IMG/VR virus record: IMGVR_UViG_2609459844_000003
Span: 1-6,259 of that record
DNA length: 6,259 nucleotides
Origin: a virus
Lineage: Duplodnaviria > Heunggongvirae > Uroviricota > Caudoviricetes
Direction: 5' to 3' (one strand)
Shown here: positions 1-6,259 of the stretch, one piece after another
How the letters are laid out: every line of letters starts with the position of its first letter
Position numbering within the stretch: the stretch's first letter is position 1
Translations under genes and position numbers: made by a program
Notes under the pieces: generated by a model
Told to the model about the DNA's origin: nothing
Databases searched by the model: none
The model's input: the letters and a program-made list of their open reading frames with translations, nothing else

Positions 1-1263
<1,263 letters not shown>

Positions 1264-1560
1264 TAATTAATGCTTAGAACAGGATCATATACCTGTATCA
1301 GGTCAGTCCACTCTTCACCTAAACGTGCAGATGTGTTAATCCGTCTCCCTGCTTAGCACCACTCTTTTGGTGATATACCCGTTTTGGCATAGTCGGCGAG
1401 AGACTGGTGTTGCAGCACTGTCCAGTCCTGTTTTACCATAAACCCCCTAGTTTTATCTTTTAATTAATAGATATTAGTAAGATGAATCAATGATGTGCTC
1501 AGAGCAAAGCACATCCTGCGTTGCTTTTAGTGCCATTTAACCTATAGAGAGATATGACGC

Positions 1561-1806
1561 GTGAGAAAGTTAATCTGTCTAATTTCGTTCGTTGCAACAT
1601 GCGGATTCGGGTATCAGGCATACCAGCATCATGGACTGGCTTCTCTACTGGCTTTCTTAGTCAGCTTAGGGGCTTTTCTAACTGCTGTAGCCAACTTAAT
1701 AAGTGAGAAGAAGAAGTCATCCTCTATAAGCCAAGTGATTGGTAATAACTCTTCAGGAATACAAGTCAGTGGTAATTTAACCATTAATGAAAAGGACAAA
1801 AAATGA
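1561..1806 (+). CDS. hypothetical small protein with hydrophobic segments; possibly the N-terminal part of the downstream gene
   Basis: 81-codon ORF in AT-rich DNA, GTG start with only a weak AGAGAG Shine-Dalgarno-like element. One strongly hydrophobic segment (LASLLAFLVSLGAFLTAVANLI) and a weaker one before it. The stop overlaps the downstream ATG (ATGA at 1803..1806). The C-terminal GNNSSGIQVSGN motif recurs in the N-terminus of the next ORF. Confidence 0.4.
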   Translation: MRKLICLISFVATCGFGYQAYQHHGLASLLAFLVSLGAFLTAVANLISEKKKSSSISQVIGNNSSGIQVSGNLTINEKDKK

Positions 1807-2711
1807 GTCTTTTCGATCATAAGTCGGGTCAACATGTCGGAGATGGTTCTACCGCAATCCAAGTAACCGGTGATGCTATCATTGGTAATACTACTACTGA
1901 AGTAGTTACTATCTGTGAATTAGTAGTTCAAGCACAAATGGCTTCTTTAAAAGAGGAAGCATATAAACTTGTAAACCAACGAGCGATAGAATTTGGTAAT
2001 CAGATTGCAGCTAAACTTTCTAGTGACCTTGATCATAAATTAAAAGAGAAATTATCCGACCCTGACATTCAATATTCGATGAACCAAGCTGTAACTCAGG
2101 TGGCTCGAAAAGGATTTGATGAAAAATCGGAGTTACTTAAAGAGCTAATCGTTTCTAAAATTCAAACTGAAGAAGAAGAGGATAGTATAGTTATAGATCA
2201 CGCTCTTGAGGTGACATCTAAATTAACAACAAACGACATTAAATTTCTCTCTCTAATATATTACCTCAGAAACATAAATAAGATACGAAACGGTATTAAC
2301 ATGACAGCTCTTGCTGAAAGAAATGAAACTCACTTTGGATTAATTGGCTTTACCGTAGAGCAAAACCATTCAGCCCACAAAGAATACTATGCTCGCTATG
2401 ATATTGATTACATTAAATTCTTAGATAAAATAGAGTCTTTGAGAAAAATAAACATTGATCTCCTCAGCTTAAAAGGCGTTATCTTCACAGACAAGCAATA
2501 CGTAACAAACTATCAAGACCTACTTGGAAAAAGGACTGGAATCACCAGCTTTGAAAGCGATGAGATGTTCTTTGAAACATTTCCTGCTTTAAAGTTAACT
2601 CTAGATGCATTTGGCGTATCGACCATAAATGACTTTAATTCATATGTTTTAAATCCAATTGGCGACCTGATTGCTCAAAACTTTCTTCGGGCTCGGAACT
2701 TCCTTCAATAG
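1803..2711 (+). CDS. hypothetical protein, 302 aa, no recognisable family; AT-rich accessory cargo
   Basis: A 909-nt ORF in AT-rich sequence where chance ORFs are short. ATG at 1803 with AAAGGA Shine-Dalgarno 6 nt upstream. Protein is K/E/I/N-rich. I see no Walker A, HNH, DDE or obvious HEPN signature by eye. Confidence 0.8.
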   Translation: MSLFDHKSGQHVGDGSTAIQVTGDAIIGNTTTEVVTICELVVQAQMASLKEEAYKLVNQRAIEFGNQIAAKLSSDLDHKLKEKLSDPDIQYSMNQAVTQVARKGFDEKSELLKELIVSKIQTEEEEDSIVIDHALEVTSKLTTNDIKFLSLIYYLRNINKIRNGINMTALAERNETHFGLIGFTVEQNHSAHKEYYARYDIDYIKFLDKIESLRKINIDLLSLKGVIFTDKQYVTNYQDLLGKRTGITSFESDEMFFETFPALKLTLDAFGVSTINDFNSYVLNPIGDLIAQNFLRARNFLQ

Positions 2712-2745
2712 GATAAAAATTATCGTTTGTAAACATTCGACAGAA

Positions 2746-2771
2746 AAGGGTATTTTTATTAAGATACCCTT
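2746..2771. terminator. hairpin between convergent transcription units; possible weak terminator
   Basis: Perfect 8-bp inverted repeat AAGGGTAT / ATACCCTT (2746..2753 and 2764..2771) with inner pairs possible, 35 nt after the stop of the 302-aa ORF. The stem is AT-rich with only a GGG/CCC core, and there is no clean U-tract on the plus side and only a short T-rich tail on the minus side. Confidence 0.25.
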
Positions 2772-2890
2772 CAAATCCACACTTACTACAAATATATCTA
2801 TAAAAAATAATTTAATTATCGAGATACATATCATTACATGATGTAGAGCTGAAAACTATTCAGCCCAACTTACATTTATCACATTCATAT

Positions 2891-3151
2891 TCATTTAAAA
2901 TGATTTACAACCTTAACGTCTCTGTCCTTTAACTCCATAATTTTTCCTAGTTGCTTGCGTTCCAACTCAATTTTACTGATACCAGTCAGTTGGTTATTCG
3001 CCTTCTCAATAGTAGCCAGCAGCGGCCCGATCCAGAGAACAGCCTGGCAGTATGTCAGGGAGCTGGCGGTAATGGAGTCACCACCGACTGCGTCAGCGTT
3101 ACCGGTATCGGTGTGCATTGTACAAGCATTCACCGAATGCCTGCTGTACAT
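2891..3151 (-). CDS. hypothetical protein, 86 aa (questionable)
   Basis: ORF in a locally GC-richer patch directly after the 79-aa ORF. No convincing Shine-Dalgarno before the ATG at 3151. C-terminal part is charged and helical-looking. Could be real, a gene remnant or spurious. Confidence 0.3.
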   Translation of the reverse strand: MYSRHSVNACTMHTDTGNADAVGGDSITASSLTYCQAVLWIGPLLATIEKANNQLTGISKIELERKQLGKIMELKDRDVKVVNHFK

Positions 3152-3168
3152 TCTCGGAACTCATACTT

Positions 3169-3408
3169 TCAGACAAACTGTTTCCAGATGATTTTATTAA
3201 AAATAGCCTTTCCCACCTCTAGAACCAACGCTGATACAAACATATAACCTCCAATCTCAGTCAACATATTAGAGGTAGCCCCACTAACCACTAATCCTAA
3301 ACCCCCTAACAACAAAAGTCCGATACCAGCCCAGAAAAGACTAAAGCTATGTACAGTAATTGAATAAACCAAATCTGTTAAGGCAACCTTCAGTTGAAAC
3401 TTATTCAT
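3169..3408 (-). CDS. small hydrophobic membrane protein, 79 aa, unknown function
   Basis: ATG at 3408 with GGAG Shine-Dalgarno 8 nt upstream, 67 nt downstream of the Rz stop on the same strand. Contains long Gly/Leu-rich hydrophobic stretches (FSLFWAGIGLLLLGGLGLVVSGA and GGYMFVSALVLEVG), consistent with two transmembrane helices. Confidence 0.6.
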   Translation of the reverse strand: MNKFQLKVALTDLVYSITVHSFSLFWAGIGLLLLGGLGLVVSGATSNMLTEIGGYMFVSALVLEVGKAIFNKIIWKQFV

Positions 3409-3475
3409 TATACAATCTCCATCTGCATGTTGAATTCATCCATGATCGTACTCATAAGCAGGTAGAGCTTTTCCA

Positions 3476-3982
3476 TCATTTATTCCGATAATTGTGATCT
3501 GACTCTCTCACCGAGTCGTAAATGCGCTCACACGTCATTCCCGAGCGGTAGCGTTCGTCAGCAATTGCAGCATAACGTTTAGCTTCTTCTGCAAGGCTTC
3601 CGAGCATGTCGGCGAGCACTGCGGCATCGGCTCCGACTGTTTTGCGTCTGACGGCAACGGCAAGATCTGTGGTGTGCTTTGCTGCATCCAGGCGGGTGGC
3701 AAGTTTTGTTGCTTCGGTGCGCAACTGGCTAACAGTGGCAGACAGGCCAGCAACAGTGGCAGCGGCTTTGGCGGCTTTAGCTTGAGCATCTTTTACAGCC
3801 TCATCACGGGCAATAATGCGCCCTTGTTCAATCATGCGGGCCGCAGCCTGCGCGTTCGCTACCTGCGAAGATTCCGCGCTATCACGTTCCGCCCATTTCT
3901 TTTGCCAGCCCCAGTCGCTCCAGACGCTTCCGGCAATAAACGCACAAGCCACCAGCAGAAACACAGCAAATGCTTTACTCAC
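3476..3982 (-). CDS. Rz: phage i-spanin Rz (inner-membrane spanin subunit)
   Basis: Lies immediately after the endolysin. Preferred start is GTG at 3982, overlapping the endolysin TGA stop (GTGA) with GGGGGA 8 nt upstream. N-terminal transmembrane segment [20 protein letters not shown], then an Ala/Lys/Glu-rich coiled-coil-like periplasmic region. Contains an embedded +1-frame lipoprotein ORF. The track's alternative ATG at 4045 would overlap the endolysin by 66 nt and has a poor Shine-Dalgarno. Confidence 0.8.
3535..3789 (-). CDS. Rz1: phage o-spanin Rz1 (outer-membrane lipoprotein), wholly embedded in Rz in another frame
   Basis: Begins MLKLK, as lambda Rz1 does. Lipobox LLASC (signal peptidase II site) after a hydrophobic leader; proline-rich mature part with Cys residues. 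GAGG Shine-Dalgarno 9 nt upstream of the ATG at 3789. Confidence 0.75.
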
Positions 3983-4527
3983 TGATCTATCCCCCAACAC
4001 GCCAGCGCGCTTTCCTGGTCCCGGCGGATAACCTGACCATAACATCCGTCTTTCTGGCCTTTCGTCAGCCGACAGTCACGTCCACCGTCTTTAATCCACC
4101 AGCGAATAGCCTCACATGCTCCCTTGCGGTCACCGGCATTAATTCGTTTGTAGAAAGTTGACGGGAAACATTTTCCTGGACCGATGTTATAAGGACAAAA
4201 TGACGCGATACCCACTTTCTGAGGTTCGGTCAGAGACACCTTGATATTGCGTTCCACCCATGTCAGCGCTTTGTCGCGCTCAATGGAATTTACAATGTTG
4301 CACTGCGCTTTTGTTGCCGTCATCCCTTTGACGACACGCTTACCATCGATAACCGTCACGCCACGACATAACGTCCATACTCCGCCCGGATCCATCACCG
4401 CCACCAGCGTATTACCTTCTTTCTCTTCGATAAACTGATCGAACAGTACCGGTGCTGAAGCCCCGGCAGCCAATAGCGCCAGCATGGCGGCACTAAGTTT
4501 ATTTCTTGTTCCCGGAGACATGACCAT
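3979..4527 (-). CDS. R: phage endolysin, T4-lysozyme-like (GH24) with N-terminal SAR (signal-anchor-release) domain
   Basis: 182 aa. The C-terminal two thirds closely match lambdoid/Stx-prophage R lysozymes as I recall them ([70 protein letters not shown]...[19 protein letters not shown]). The N-terminus has a weakly hydrophobic Gly/Ala-rich segment [19 protein letters not shown] typical of SAR endolysins. GGAGG Shine-Dalgarno 9 nt upstream. Confidence 0.93.
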
Positions 4528-4768
4528 TAAGGCGGTCCTCCCGTTCTTTGCGCCGGTAATACCAGTTCACGGCACAGGTGATAACAGTGCAGGCAATACC
4601 GACGATGATTGCCCAGTCACTCAGGCTGAGACCTGCAATTTTGTCGACCAGCATCCACGAAACCTCTTTCGTTGAACTGGCGTAAGCCTTAGCAGAGATA
4701 CCACAGCCTGTAAGTGTTGTTCCTGTTCCATATGAAAGCCTGCTGGAAAGTGTGCTCATTCTGGCCAT
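4499..4768 (-). CDS. S: phage holin, pinholin-like (S21-type architecture) with dual-start motif
   Basis: 89 aa, overlapping the endolysin start. N-terminus M-A-R-M gives two in-frame starts separated by a positive residue (holin/antiholin arrangement); GGAGG sits 2 nt before Met1 and 11 nt before Met4. Gly/Thr-rich weak first hydrophobic segment, strong second transmembrane segment WAIIVGIACTVITCAVNWYY, highly charged C-terminus RRKEREDRL, resembling phage 21 S pinholin layout. Confidence 0.8.
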   Translation of the reverse strand: MARMSTLSSRLSYGTGTTLTGCGISAKAYASSTKEVSWMLVDKIAGLSLSDWAIIVGIACTVITCAVNWYYRRKEREDRLNGHVSGNKK

Positions 4769-4939
4769 AACCTCCCCCTGTCCGGGAGACTGTTAACCCG
4801 GTTTACGGGTGTTAAAAAAACGCTGAATACGACTTGCCCATTTGATGCTGCAGTTATTAAGCTGACTTTTCAGCCTTTGACTGACTGAAAACCGACTAAG
4901 CCGCTCGAAGGAAAACGGTACGATGATTAAGGAGCTGAA

Positions 4940-5176
4940 ATGAAGGTTTCAAAAAAAGAGTTTGAAAAATTAAAAACAAGAGTGTGCATAGCCGAGATAG
5001 CGCTTGCTTATACACTTACAGGACTGTCATCAAAGTACCCGGAATTGAAAACTTCAGTAGTTAAGGCACTAAATGCGGATGTAAAACTGAACGAGTGTAA
5101 TAATCCTGAAGCAGCCAAAGCCATCTCAGACCTCTCAAAACTGATTGATAGCTTTACTGTCGTTGGTCCGGAATAA
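4940..5176 (+). CDS. hypothetical small protein, 78 aa, opposite-strand moron between tRNA and holin
   Basis: Strong AAGGAG Shine-Dalgarno 5 nt upstream of the ATG. Looks lower in GC than the flanking lysis genes. Predicted soluble, helical and K/E-rich. No family recognised. Confidence 0.6.
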   Translation: MKVSKKEFEKLKTRVCIAEIALAYTLTGLSSKYPELKTSVVKALNADVKLNECNNPEAAKAISDLSKLIDSFTVVGPE

Positions 5177-5263
5177 ACTCTTTCCGATAAATTCGTGGTG
5201 TTTCGACGTGTCACCAGGGATTCATACAGTTAGCTCAGAAGGCCGATGCTCTCCAGTGATGGA

Positions 5264-5340
5264 TGGTGGCCCTTGCCGGACTTGAACCAGCGACCAGGCG
5301 ATTATGAGTCGCACGCTCTGACCAACTGAGCTAAAGGGCC
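5264..5340 (-). tRNA. ileZ: tRNA with anticodon CAU, most like tRNA-Ile2 (lysidine-modified) of lambdoid/Stx prophages; may be annotated tRNA-Met
   Basis: Minus strand 5'-GGCCCTTTAGCTCAGTTGGTCAGAGCGTGCGACTCATAATCGCCTGGTCGCTGGTTCAAGTCCGGCAAGGGCCACCA-3', 77 nt. Folded by hand: 7-bp acceptor stem GGCCCTT/AAGGGCC, D-arm GCTC/GAGC, anticodon loop CTCATAA (CAT), T-arm GCTGG/CCGGC with TTCAAGT loop, encoded CCA. Anticodon arm resembles E. coli ileX-type tRNA. Confidence 0.9.
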
Positions 5341-5396
5341 CTGACGCTGCGGTGCCGGACCGCTATTATTCCGGTAGATTGCGCGCTGATACACAA

Positions 5397-5421
5397 TGAA
5401 CCGCCCCGGGAATCCTGGAGA
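5397..5421 (+). repeat. IS629 left terminal inverted repeat (IRL)
   Basis: Begins with the TG dinucleotide typical of IS3-family termini, 54 nt upstream of orfA. The exact IR length cannot be set without the right end. Confidence 0.55.
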
Positions 5422-5450
5422 CTAAACTTCCTGAGAAAGAGGTAAACAGG

Positions 5451-5777
5451 ATGACTAAAAATACTCGTTTTTCCCCCGAAGTCCGTCAACGGGCAGTCCG
5501 TATGGTTCTGGAAAGTCAGAGCGAATATGACTCACAATGGGCGACAATTTGTTCCATTGCTCCAAAGATTGGCTGTACGCCGGAGACTCTGCGTGTCTGG
5601 GTTCGCCAGCATGAGCGGGATACCGGGGGCGGTGATGGAGGGCTCACCACCGCTGAACGTCAGCGTCTGAAAGAGCTGGAACGTGAAAATCGTGAACTGC
5701 GCCGCAGTAACGATATCCTTCGCCAGGCTTCCGCTTATTTTGCGAAGGCGGAGTTCGACCGCCTCTGGAAAAAGTGA
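5451..5777 (+). CDS. IS629 transposase OrfA, 108 aa
   Basis: [108 protein letters not shown] is near-identical to IS629/IS1203 OrfA from memory. GAGG Shine-Dalgarno 8 nt upstream. Confidence 0.95.
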
Positions 5778-6259
5778 TGCCACTGCTGGATAAGCTGCGT
5801 AAGCTGTACGGGGTCGGACCGGTATGCAGTGAACTACATATTGCCCCGTCAACGTATTACCACTGTCAGCAACAGCGACATCATCCGGATAAACGCAGTG
5901 CCCGTGCGCAGCGCGATGACTGGCTGAAGAAAGAGATACAGCGCGTATACGATGAAAATCACAAGGTATACGGTGTGCGTAAAGTCTGGCGTCAGTTGTT
6001 ACGGGAAGGTATCAGAGTGGCCAGATGCACTGTGGCACGTCTCATGGCGGTTATGGGACTTGCCGGTGTTCTCCGGGGTAAAAAGGTCCGTACGACCATC
6101 AGCCGGAAAGCCGTTGCCGCAGGCGACCGCGTAAACCGTCAGTTCGTGGCAGAACGACCTGACCAGCTGTGGGTGGCTGATTTTACTTACGTCAGCACAT
6201 GGCGGGGCTTCGTCTATGTGGCGTTCATCATTGATGTGTTTGCCGGATACATCGTGGGG
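5777..6259 (+). CDS. IS629 transposase OrfB (DDE domain), 5' part only; -1 frame relative to orfA
   Basis: ATG at 5777 overlaps the orfA stop (TGATG), with an AAAAAG run at 5769..5774. Translation [99 protein letters not shown]...QLWVADFTYVSTWRGFVYVAFIIDVFAGYIVG is open to the window end. Missing from the ORF track because it has no stop in the window. Confidence 0.9.
   Translation, partial: MPLLDKLRKLYGVGPVCSELHIAPSTYYHCQQQRHHPDKRSARAQRDDWLKKEIQRVYDENHKVYGVRKVWRQLLREGIRVARCTVARLMAVMGLAGVLRGKKVRTTISRKAVAAGDRVNRQFVAERPDQLWVADFTYVSTWRGFVYVAFIIDVFAGYIVG

Follow-up and report, generated by a model that had tools for sequence, protein, structure and literature searches.

A mobile small gene on the opposite strand of Enterobacterales prophage late operons: coding status, protein family and a possible role in phage defence

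The stretch of DNA analysed here, called the window (6,259 nucleotides (nt), positions 1 to 6,259 of the IMG/VR virus record IMGVR_UViG_2609459844_000003), carries on its minus strand a lambdoid lysis cassette with genes for a holin, a lysozyme and an Rz-like spanin. In the interval between the holin gene and a tRNA gene (4769-5263), a small open reading frame (ORF) of 78 codons, 4940-5176, runs on the plus strand against the late operon; this ORF is the subject of the present work. The part of the window enclosed by two insertion sequence (IS) elements of the IS3 family (1233-5397) was found with 99.95% identity in E. coli draft assemblies which do not have either IS copy, and the order of genes in the late direction is there a Q-like antiterminator (DUF1133), ORF6N, DoxX, the tRNA, the ORF for the protein of 78 amino acids (aa) on the opposite strand, holin, lysozyme and spanin. 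The antiterminator gene is located outside the window because an IS3-family element begins at 5398; in the IS-free E. coli relatives the Q-like gene lies ~3 kb past the tRNA. Opposite-strand accessory genes are a known kind of prophage gene, but the family to which this one belongs is new. The features of the locus and of its relatives are compiled in Table 1.

The initial annotation of the window had noted the ORF as a gene with a near-consensus AAGGAG Shine-Dalgarno sequence, a GC content lower than that of its neighbours and a K/E-rich, helical product without a signal peptide, and all of this was borne out. The Shine-Dalgarno sequence is found 5 nt before the ATG, and the GC content of the ORF is 0.39-0.41 as compared to 0.51-0.56 in both flanks. 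The protein contains 11 K and 7 E, and neither a signal peptide nor a membrane segment was found in it (maximum of the Kyte-Doolittle 19-residue window, 1.08). The exact 78-aa protein was recorded in public assemblies that bear the label E. coli (94 index blocks), and serovars of Salmonella enterica carry a copy with 91% aa identity in two phage backbones, one with lambda-type head genes and a PF06323 Q, the other with a P22-type portal and a PF03589 antiterminator. E. coli and Salmonella have a block of 1.37 kb in common that comprises lysozyme, holin, ORF and tRNA (91.9% identity). The ORFs of the window and of Salmonella differ at 25 nt, of which 5, 2 and 18 are at the first, second and third codon position, respectively (chi-square p = 1.7e-4); the ratio of non-synonymous to synonymous substitution rates (dN/dS) was 0.15, the chance of such a small number of non-synonymous changes was put at ~1e-4 or less by a binomial calculation, and the holin gave a dN/dS of 0.016 in the same comparison. 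The initial annotation had named absence or disruption of the ORF in close relatives as counter-evidence; an unbroken ORF with a strong ribosome-binding site was present in each of the 15 loci fetched from E. coli and Salmonella, and one frameshifted database variant of 53 aa (P0002) was encountered. An antisense ORF of 68 aa (5008-5214, minus strand) was ruled out as a true gene: it starts with GTG without a ribosome-binding site, and stop codons interrupt it in Salmonella, Klebsiella and other relatives. Its apparent dN/dS of 0.18 is an expected echo, since third codon positions are common to both frames. In sum, ORF 4940-5176 is a functional protein-coding gene under purifying selection, and it encodes a small cytoplasmic three-helix-bundle protein.

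Searches for homologues and for structural neighbours, which the initial annotation had suggested, led to a family that had not been described before. A word-indexed search returned only the 90% cluster of the protein itself, an exhaustive phmmer search of 1.84 billion representatives added six further small proteins, and the profile search that followed gave 21 clusters of 71-79 aa, all of them named 'hypothetical' and all from prophages of Enterobacterales. Beyond E. coli and Salmonella, the hosts are Atlantibacter, Citrobacter, Klebsiella, Xenorhabdus, Providencia and Yersinia. Family members are 35-57% identical, their indels keep the frame, the GC content is 0.35-0.42 in all of them, and Y24, K37, L44, D47, N51 and F72 are invariant in the 20 sequences aligned (A3). 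AlphaFold2, run on the 20-sequence alignment, predicted with confidence a three-helix bundle (helices 5-29, 36-51 and 56-71; mean predicted local distance difference test score 92.6, predicted template modelling score 0.75). A fold search with this model gave no informative neighbour, no family match to the 78-aa protein was obtained in Pfam, PHROG, NCBIfam or PADLOC, and a sequence-profile search of the PDB returned nothing below E = 0.045. Five IMG/VR contigs carry the family, and a scan of species-representative genomes with a narrower search pattern found one locus. The family is rare, restricted to prophages of Enterobacterales and previously undescribed. A 972-aa tail-fibre-like protein (P0011) contains at least eight tandem repeats of KVSKEEFNxLGNRVxAAESSITQTAEEIAL which resemble helix 1 (44% identity over 28 residues); this likeness is probably due to coiled-coil convergence. 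As to the carriers, the exact 78-aa protein was found in 94 index blocks of draft assemblies, yet megablast and blastn searches of the locus against 5,426 complete E. coli genomes gave no DNA match. The carrier lineage seems to be represented by drafts only, and the large number of IS copies would be in line with an E. coli background that is Shigella-like or rich in IS elements.

Members of the family were found at seven different junctions of prophage late operons (Table 1), at 7/7 of them in antisense orientation to the operon. The distance between the upstream neighbour and the start codon is kept within 163-174 nt in every locus. Four of the seven contexts adjoin the lysis cassette, with three of them directly upstream of holins from three different families, and four of the six junctions other than that of tRNA and holin are in the tail operon or between lysis and packaging genes. 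In lambda, the tail genes M and L, and I and J, are adjacent. A survey of the same position in other prophages, also proposed in the initial annotation, revealed that the holin-upstream interval of related prophages holds other cargo, for example an opposite-strand FlxA-like gene, a methyltransferase gene or HicAB; in VT2-Sakai, the late strand carries stx2AB upstream of S, and bor follows Rz in antisense orientation. The HicA/HicB genes are found on the opposite strand of the Q-to-holin interval, at ~11949-12356 (+) in three Salmonella loci (L002, L004, L009) and at 7946-8608 (+) in two Klebsiella loci (L017, L018).

Morons in the sense of Hendrix and Juhala are autonomous accessory transcription units inserted between phage genes. 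Insertion is evident from the other cargo upstream of related holins and from the family members between M and L, between I and J and between Rz and the terminase gene, and the base composition is distinct (GC 0.39 versus 0.51-0.56 in the flanks). A terminator of its own is absent from the window copy and is present in relatives (L024, 6282-6313; L017, 6245-6257). As for a promoter, a conserved TAAGYT-N6-7-TCAGCC is accompanied by a weak TTGCCC 18 nt upstream and not by a consensus sigma-70 site. Taken together, the cassette is a mobile, AT-rich moron that is always antisense to the Q-dependent late operon. The initial annotation had placed a moron at the equivalent of the stx site. With varied cargo in the interval and an AT-rich gene, the word moron is fair; the tie to the interval between tRNA and holin is not, since the family occupies six other junctions. 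The gene is found at seven different junctions and, therefore, its stx-equivalent position in the window is incidental.

With the exception of E. coli and Salmonella, all lineages have the three-helix gene as part of a two-gene cassette of ~0.6 kb, the second gene of which, the partner, is located on the late strand and is convergent with the first. The partner ORF encodes 45-114 aa with a coiled-coil N-terminus (MTxEQRIEALExxVxxLKKQL) and a variable C-terminus, is preceded by a conserved ribosome-binding region, GCCGAAAGGCRGGAG, and overlaps the 3' end of the three-helix gene by ~14-32 nt. A DUF1327 protein carries the partner motif as a C-terminal fusion in Providencia-type loci. With the partner as query, a profile search gave 21 clusters, all hypothetical and all from the same genera as the family, and a convergent antisense gene was present in both of the two contexts that were opened (2/2). 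The partner matches phrog_1805, a family of unknown function; the name DUF5320, given by NCBI to the Klebsiella partner, was not reproduced by a Pfam scan. In a pair of Yersinia loci, dN/dS was 0.40 for the partner and 0.21 for the family gene. In Y. frederiksenii (L045/L046, 2730-2975, minus strand), the antisense protein is only marginally family-like (7.7 bits), the leader described below and the N-terminus of the partner are kept and the C-terminus of the partner is different; the antisense protein and the partner may be diverging together. In some relatives, the three-helix gene is followed by a terminator on the plus strand. Furthermore, a strong intrinsic terminator in the late direction was seen at the far end of the cassette beyond the leader, just before the next late gene (L017, 5872->5853 (-); L029, 5871->5854 (-)), which would halt transcription that is not Q-modified.

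The relatives also have a structured leader of ~60-85 nt upstream of the three-helix gene. It comprises one hairpin with compensatory changes and a second just before AAGGA (CAGAGG/CCUCUG, CCGAAG/CUUCGG, GGAGG/CCUCC); 92.9% of the cells of the leader alignment are paired and five pairs have double changes. An invariant UCAGCC at the 5' end is complementary to an invariant GGCUGA, which lies in the loop of the covarying hairpin just before the ribosome-binding site, and this pairing could be a pseudoknot or a switch. A covariance model of the leader (R1) was built from eight leaders and recovered held-out leaders at 56-88 bits, and Rfam gave nothing above noise on a relative's cassette. A mini-ORF inside the leader of relatives, ATGGCTGATTACCTCTGA, was taken to be a chance ORF; no space separates its ribosome-binding site from the ATG, which is ACG in Klebsiella. 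An alignment of eight upstream regions (A4) showed that TAAGCT-N6-TCAGCC is the sole upstream motif common to all family members, with TCAGCC invariant and a TAnnnT hexamer 6-7 nt upstream of it. The motif may be a -10 element followed by the transcript start. The upstream TTGCCC as a -35 element is speculative; this hexamer is not conserved across the wider family. In the window, the putative leader of 82 nt is no more stable in its fold than shuffled sequence (z = -0.24) and an apparent pairing of its 5' UCAGCCUU with the Shine-Dalgarno region was dropped for the same reason. Rfam matched the tRNA alone in a scan of the interval and its boundary, and a terminator scan showed that the late-direction terminator of relatives is absent from the window copy.

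Table 1 Features of the window and of related loci (positions are those of the respective sequence; junctions are given as neighbouring genes)
Feature	Location	Strand	Remarks
78-codon gene (78 aa + stop), three-helix-bundle protein, 8.5 kDa, isoelectric point 8.6	window 4940-5176	+	ORF listing
Shine-Dalgarno AAGGAG	window 4929-4934	+	read from sequence; 5 nt before ATG; relatives have AAGGAA or AAGGA there
Spacer, holin start codon to gene	window 4769-4939	+	171 nt; relatives 163-174 nt
TAAGCT-N6-TCAGCC	window 4858-4875	+	sole upstream motif common to all family members; eight upstream regions aligned
TTGCCC, candidate weak -35 hexamer	window 4834-4839	+	18 nt upstream of TAAGCT; TTGTCC in Salmonella
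3' flank, ORF to tRNA	window 5177-5263	+	87 nt; no intrinsic terminator, no partner gene
Holin, pinholin-type	window 4499-4768	-	PF16080 3.9e-14, PF04971 8.2e-9; first gene of lysis cassette, left boundary of insertion
Lysozyme	window 3979-4527	-	PF00959
Rz-like spanin, DUF2514, with embedded lipoprotein-like frame	window 3476-4045	-
tRNA, anticodon CAT	window 5264-5340	-	ARAGORN; Rfam tRNA 67 bits; right boundary of insertion
IS3-family elements	window 1-1232 and 5398-6259		each with HTH_Tnp_1 orfA: 849-1196 (-), 5451-5777 (+)
Junction tRNA / holin			E. coli, Salmonella
Junction Rz / small terminase			Klebsiella
Junction methyltransferase / PF05106 holin			Xenorhabdus; upstream of holin
Junction DUF1327 / holin			Providencia type
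Junction after tape measure gene			Citrobacter
Junction tail I / J			Yersinia and two viral contigs
Junction tail M / L			Atlantibacter; divergent Y. frederiksenii member
Partner ORFs	L018 6215-6478; L027 5228-5404; L029 6221-6427; L024 6221-6565; L021 3293-3430; L033 1399-1611	-
Partner ORFs	L043 2501-2677; L045 2501-2761	+
Leaders	L017 5926-6003; L024 5926-6003; L029 5925-6003; L027 4940-5022
Leaders	L021 2998-3061; L022 147-208; L033 1103-1181; L037 2911-2970

From this arrangement, we propose that the three-helix gene would be transcribed in the lysogen from its own weak promoter, as the initial annotation had supposed, and that convergent late transcription would lower its expression after induction. 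The product would act by binding another protein and, as a prophage-encoded factor, would stop superinfecting phages at a late step, either virion assembly or packaging, and the late-strand partner of the relatives would serve as self-immunity. Such a logic of defence and self-immunity has been shown experimentally for Tab/anti-Tab (Patel et al. 2024, PMC10884400), TerI/anti-TerI (Azulay et al. 2025, bioRxiv 10.1101/2025.02.27.640495) and Tai/Ati (He et al. 2024, PMC11364771). The initial annotation had considered lysogenic conversion or regulation; the two-gene cassette with its late-strand partner points towards a design of defence and self-immunity more than towards toxin-like lysogenic conversion. 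By analogy with these systems, we tentatively read the gene as coding for a lysogen-expressed, protein-binding anti-phage factor of the late stage with the partner as self-immunity, and put this reading somewhat short of an even chance. Broader and more doubtful is the idea that the three-helix protein and the coiled-coil partner would together form an unrecognised defence/self-immunity cassette of Enterobacterales, similar to Tab and TerI in function and unrelated in sequence, the ~0.6-kb unit of which would hop between late-operon junctions and the leader of which may tie translation to the late-transcription state; in that case, the window copy would be an orphan effector that has lost antidote and leader and is selected because the resident backbones are not its target.

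A number of results weigh against this proposal. In the window and in three related loci (L001, L006, L011), a profile hidden Markov model of the partner found no match in six-frame translations, also none past the tRNA, and R1 found no match either (best score 3.7 bits in 4700-5000 with filters off); the analogy draws its force from partner and leader, and the window copy has neither. A terminator scan of the window revealed none between the stop codon of the ORF and the tRNA, the nearest plus-strand site being 5349-5363, past the tRNA, and a consensus promoter scan revealed no consensus sigma-70 promoter on the plus strand upstream of the ORF, neither in the window nor in relatives. The IS elements cut the window prophage on both sides and the 78-aa gene could sit in a decaying prophage remnant; the right-hand element parts the tRNA and the lysis genes from the antiterminator side, by which late transcription of the window copy may have been cut off. 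No match to the 78-aa protein was found by tblastn in 50,697 phage records, JBD26 and phi80 included, and the family profile A3 reached an hhalign probability of 0.15 with Tab (YP_010299225, JBD26 gp31) and of 0.24 with AtiEcA. The analogy is drawn from gene size, orientation and neighbourhood, in which a toxin/antidote pair or a regulator could look alike.

The window copy is, then, an orphan: it has no partner and its leader is remodelled, yet it is under purifying selection. The copies of E. coli and of Salmonella are both partner-less, so the 25 differences that separate them, most of which are synonymous, accumulated while the gene had no partner. Since this derived state is common to both and the differences are mainly synonymous, selection acted on the gene in the absence of the partner, which fits an effector better than a dedicated antidote.

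The same survival of a partner-less gene in E. coli and Salmonella would also be expected of an ordinary moron for lysogenic conversion or regulation, whose product is made in the lysogen and binds a host protein (a regulator, a protease adaptor or a component of the stress response) with no anti-phage role, the partner of relatives being an unrelated co-traveller. A small, helical and soluble protein with the conserved polar residues Y24, K37, D47 and N51, which suit a binding surface, is in line with this, as are the AT-rich, foreign composition and the varied cargo of the interval in related prophages. We consider it unlikely, if the best of the alternatives, since the strict linkage of partner and family gene at six independent junctions, with overlapping 3' ends, is hard to explain for unrelated genes, the antisense orientation at 7/7 junctions suggests a tie to late transcription, and no similarity to any known host-modulating small protein was found. 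A tie to late transcription is central to another explanation, in which the gene is a safety device of lysis or late genes: antisense transcription and/or the protein would damp a leaky late operon in the lysogen, or the protein would act like a cytoplasmic antiholin and tune the timing of lysis. The holin gene of the window is directly downstream in the late direction, the lysis cassette is adjoined in 4/7 contexts with three directly upstream of holins from three families, convergent transcription would oppose unantiterminated read-through, the far end of the relatives' cassette bears a late-direction terminator and, in phi80 with its analogous arrangement, Tai goes down when Q is expressed (PMC11364771). 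Three contexts, however, are inside tail operons far from lysis genes, selection acts on the protein sequence and not on transcription alone, the window has no late-direction terminator and similarity to known antiholins or lysis regulators was not found; on balance, a safety device is improbable.

The convergent, overlapping genes and the structured leader recall addiction-like modules as well, in which one of the two small proteins is harmful and the other neutralises it, with control at the RNA level via the antisense overlap, and the HicAB cargo in the same intervals of Salmonella and Klebsiella loci is of this class; the window would then keep the harmless half. But decay is what one would expect of an orphan antitoxin, whereas purifying selection acts on the orphan copy, and neither protein resembles a known toxin or antitoxin or is hydrophobic like type I toxins, which makes a toxin-antidote pair slightly more improbable still than a safety device. 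That the gene has no function at all and is what a degraded cassette has left behind, a passenger of the block of lysozyme, holin and tRNA, would agree with the absence of partner, leader and terminator from the window, with the frameshifted 53-aa variant (P0002) and with the IS elements that flank the window prophage. With a dN/dS of 0.15 between two partner-less copies and an intact ORF with a strong ribosome-binding site in 15/15 E. coli and Salmonella loci, in Salmonella in two phage backbones, a mere hitchhiker is very improbable, the least credible of the explanations considered.

Other features of the window were noted beside the three-helix gene. ARAGORN labelled the tRNA at the right boundary as tRNA-Met (CAT). 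It is probably a lysidine-type tRNA-Ile2 that decodes AUA like ileX or ileZ, as judged from E. coli prophage tRNAs of 92-93% identity, which are annotated as tRNA-Ile. ATA codons number two in the 78-aa ORF, one in the lysozyme gene and none in the holin and spanin genes. A second opposite-strand cargo is present on the packaging side of the spanin gene, which is the position of bor and Tai: an 81-aa membrane protein (1561-1806, plus strand) is followed by a protein of 302 aa (1803-2711, plus strand) of the LPO_1073/Vpar_1526 family (NCBIfam NF045477, E = 4e-30; phrog_19542). This cargo (1561-2711) has no similarity to phi80 TaiEcA and no PADLOC match. Two adjoining minus-strand ORFs, 2891-3151 and 3169-3408, encode 86 aa and 79 aa (the latter a predicted membrane protein without a family match). 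The former matches just the C-terminal third of Rz-like spanins (positions 116-174 of 176 in phrog_214) and looks like the remnant of a second spanin.

Small opposite-strand genes in prophage late operons are usually left as 'hypothetical'. The work on Tab, TerI and Tai revealed that such genes can be population-level defences which sabotage virion assembly or packaging of invaders and are paired with a late-expressed antidote (PMC10884400; bioRxiv 10.1101/2025.02.27.640495; PMC11364771). The family described here is a compact and well-delimited candidate for defence in prophages of E. coli, Salmonella, Klebsiella, Citrobacter and Yersinia, with natural variants with and without partner and with a leader RNA whose covariation support makes it open to direct tests. 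Should the role in defence be true, this class would gain an effector with a new fold and a new target, and its cassettes would be seen to move freely among late-operon junctions. If it is not, the ORF is still established as a real gene on which selection acts, and its position between tRNA and holin as incidental.

The likeness of the family to Tab, TerI and Tai is architectural, in size, orientation, late-strand neighbour and location in the late operon, and no homology is detectable at the level of sequence. The initial annotation had compared the gene to bor of lambda, a small opposite-strand gene beside the lysis cassette which is expressed from the prophage and whose product is a secreted lipoprotein. 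Size, strand and the lysis cassette as neighbour are indeed the same, but the comparison fails on content: Bor has a lipobox and its gene a fixed position, whereas the window protein has neither signal peptide nor lipobox, its family moves between junctions and tblastn of the phage records gave no sequence similarity between the two. TerI of the Listeria prophage phi10403S (65 aa, 8.3 kDa) is transcribed constitutively from its own promoter, blocks packaging with the terminase as target and is counteracted by anti-TerI genes on the lytic strand; homologues are reported from A006 and A500 (bioRxiv 10.1101/2025.02.27.640495). Like the window gene, it is a small protein encoded on the strand opposite to the lytic operon, and its operon carries self-immunity genes. 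Unlike the window gene, it belongs to the early lytic module, overlaps a gene on the other strand and is part of a Gram-positive system. The window protein showed no similarity to TerI by tblastn of all phage records, in which the presence of the A006 and A500 records was not checked.

Tab of JBD26 is a protein of 83 aa without a known domain. Its gene, which has a promoter of its own, runs on the opposite strand between the two terminase genes, and the protein acts via the tape measure protein to keep invading phages from assembling their tails; the product of atab, a convergent gene on the late strand, binds Tab and neutralises it (PMC10884400). Tab and the window family are alike in having ~80 residues, no recognisable domain and a gene opposite to the late operon, and both are classed as morons. 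The relatives of the window gene resemble Tab/anti-Tab further in the small late-strand gene that adjoins in convergent orientation with overlapping 3' ends; in the JBD26 record, atab (13377-13628, plus strand) and tab (13582-13833, minus strand) overlap by 47 nt. In contrast to the family with its seven junctions in lambdoid and P22-like prophages of Enterobacterales, tab is always between terminase genes, in Mu-like phages of Pseudomonas, and it has an adjacent late-strand partner which the window copy does not have. The activity of Tab is demonstrated, whereas that of the window family is a proposal.

Tai and Ati of phi80 form a noncontiguous operon inside the Q-controlled late operon, expression of Q lowers Tai and a recognisable Ati was found with 5/57 of the Tai homologues (PMC11364771). 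Differences to the family are the size (TaiEcA has 203 aa, the window protein 78 aa) and the layout, tai and ati of phi80 being divergent and not convergent; homology to TaiEcA was not found, the window protein being without a tblastn match in the phage records including phi80. Tai is nevertheless the system from the same host family and the same type of phage, with a gene in opposite orientation that interrupts a Q-controlled late operon. It adjoins a small late-strand gene for counter-defence as the relatives of the window gene adjoin their late-strand partner, it is located between lysis and packaging genes, which is the position of the Klebsiella members of the family, and most of its homologues are without Ati, as the window copy is without a partner.

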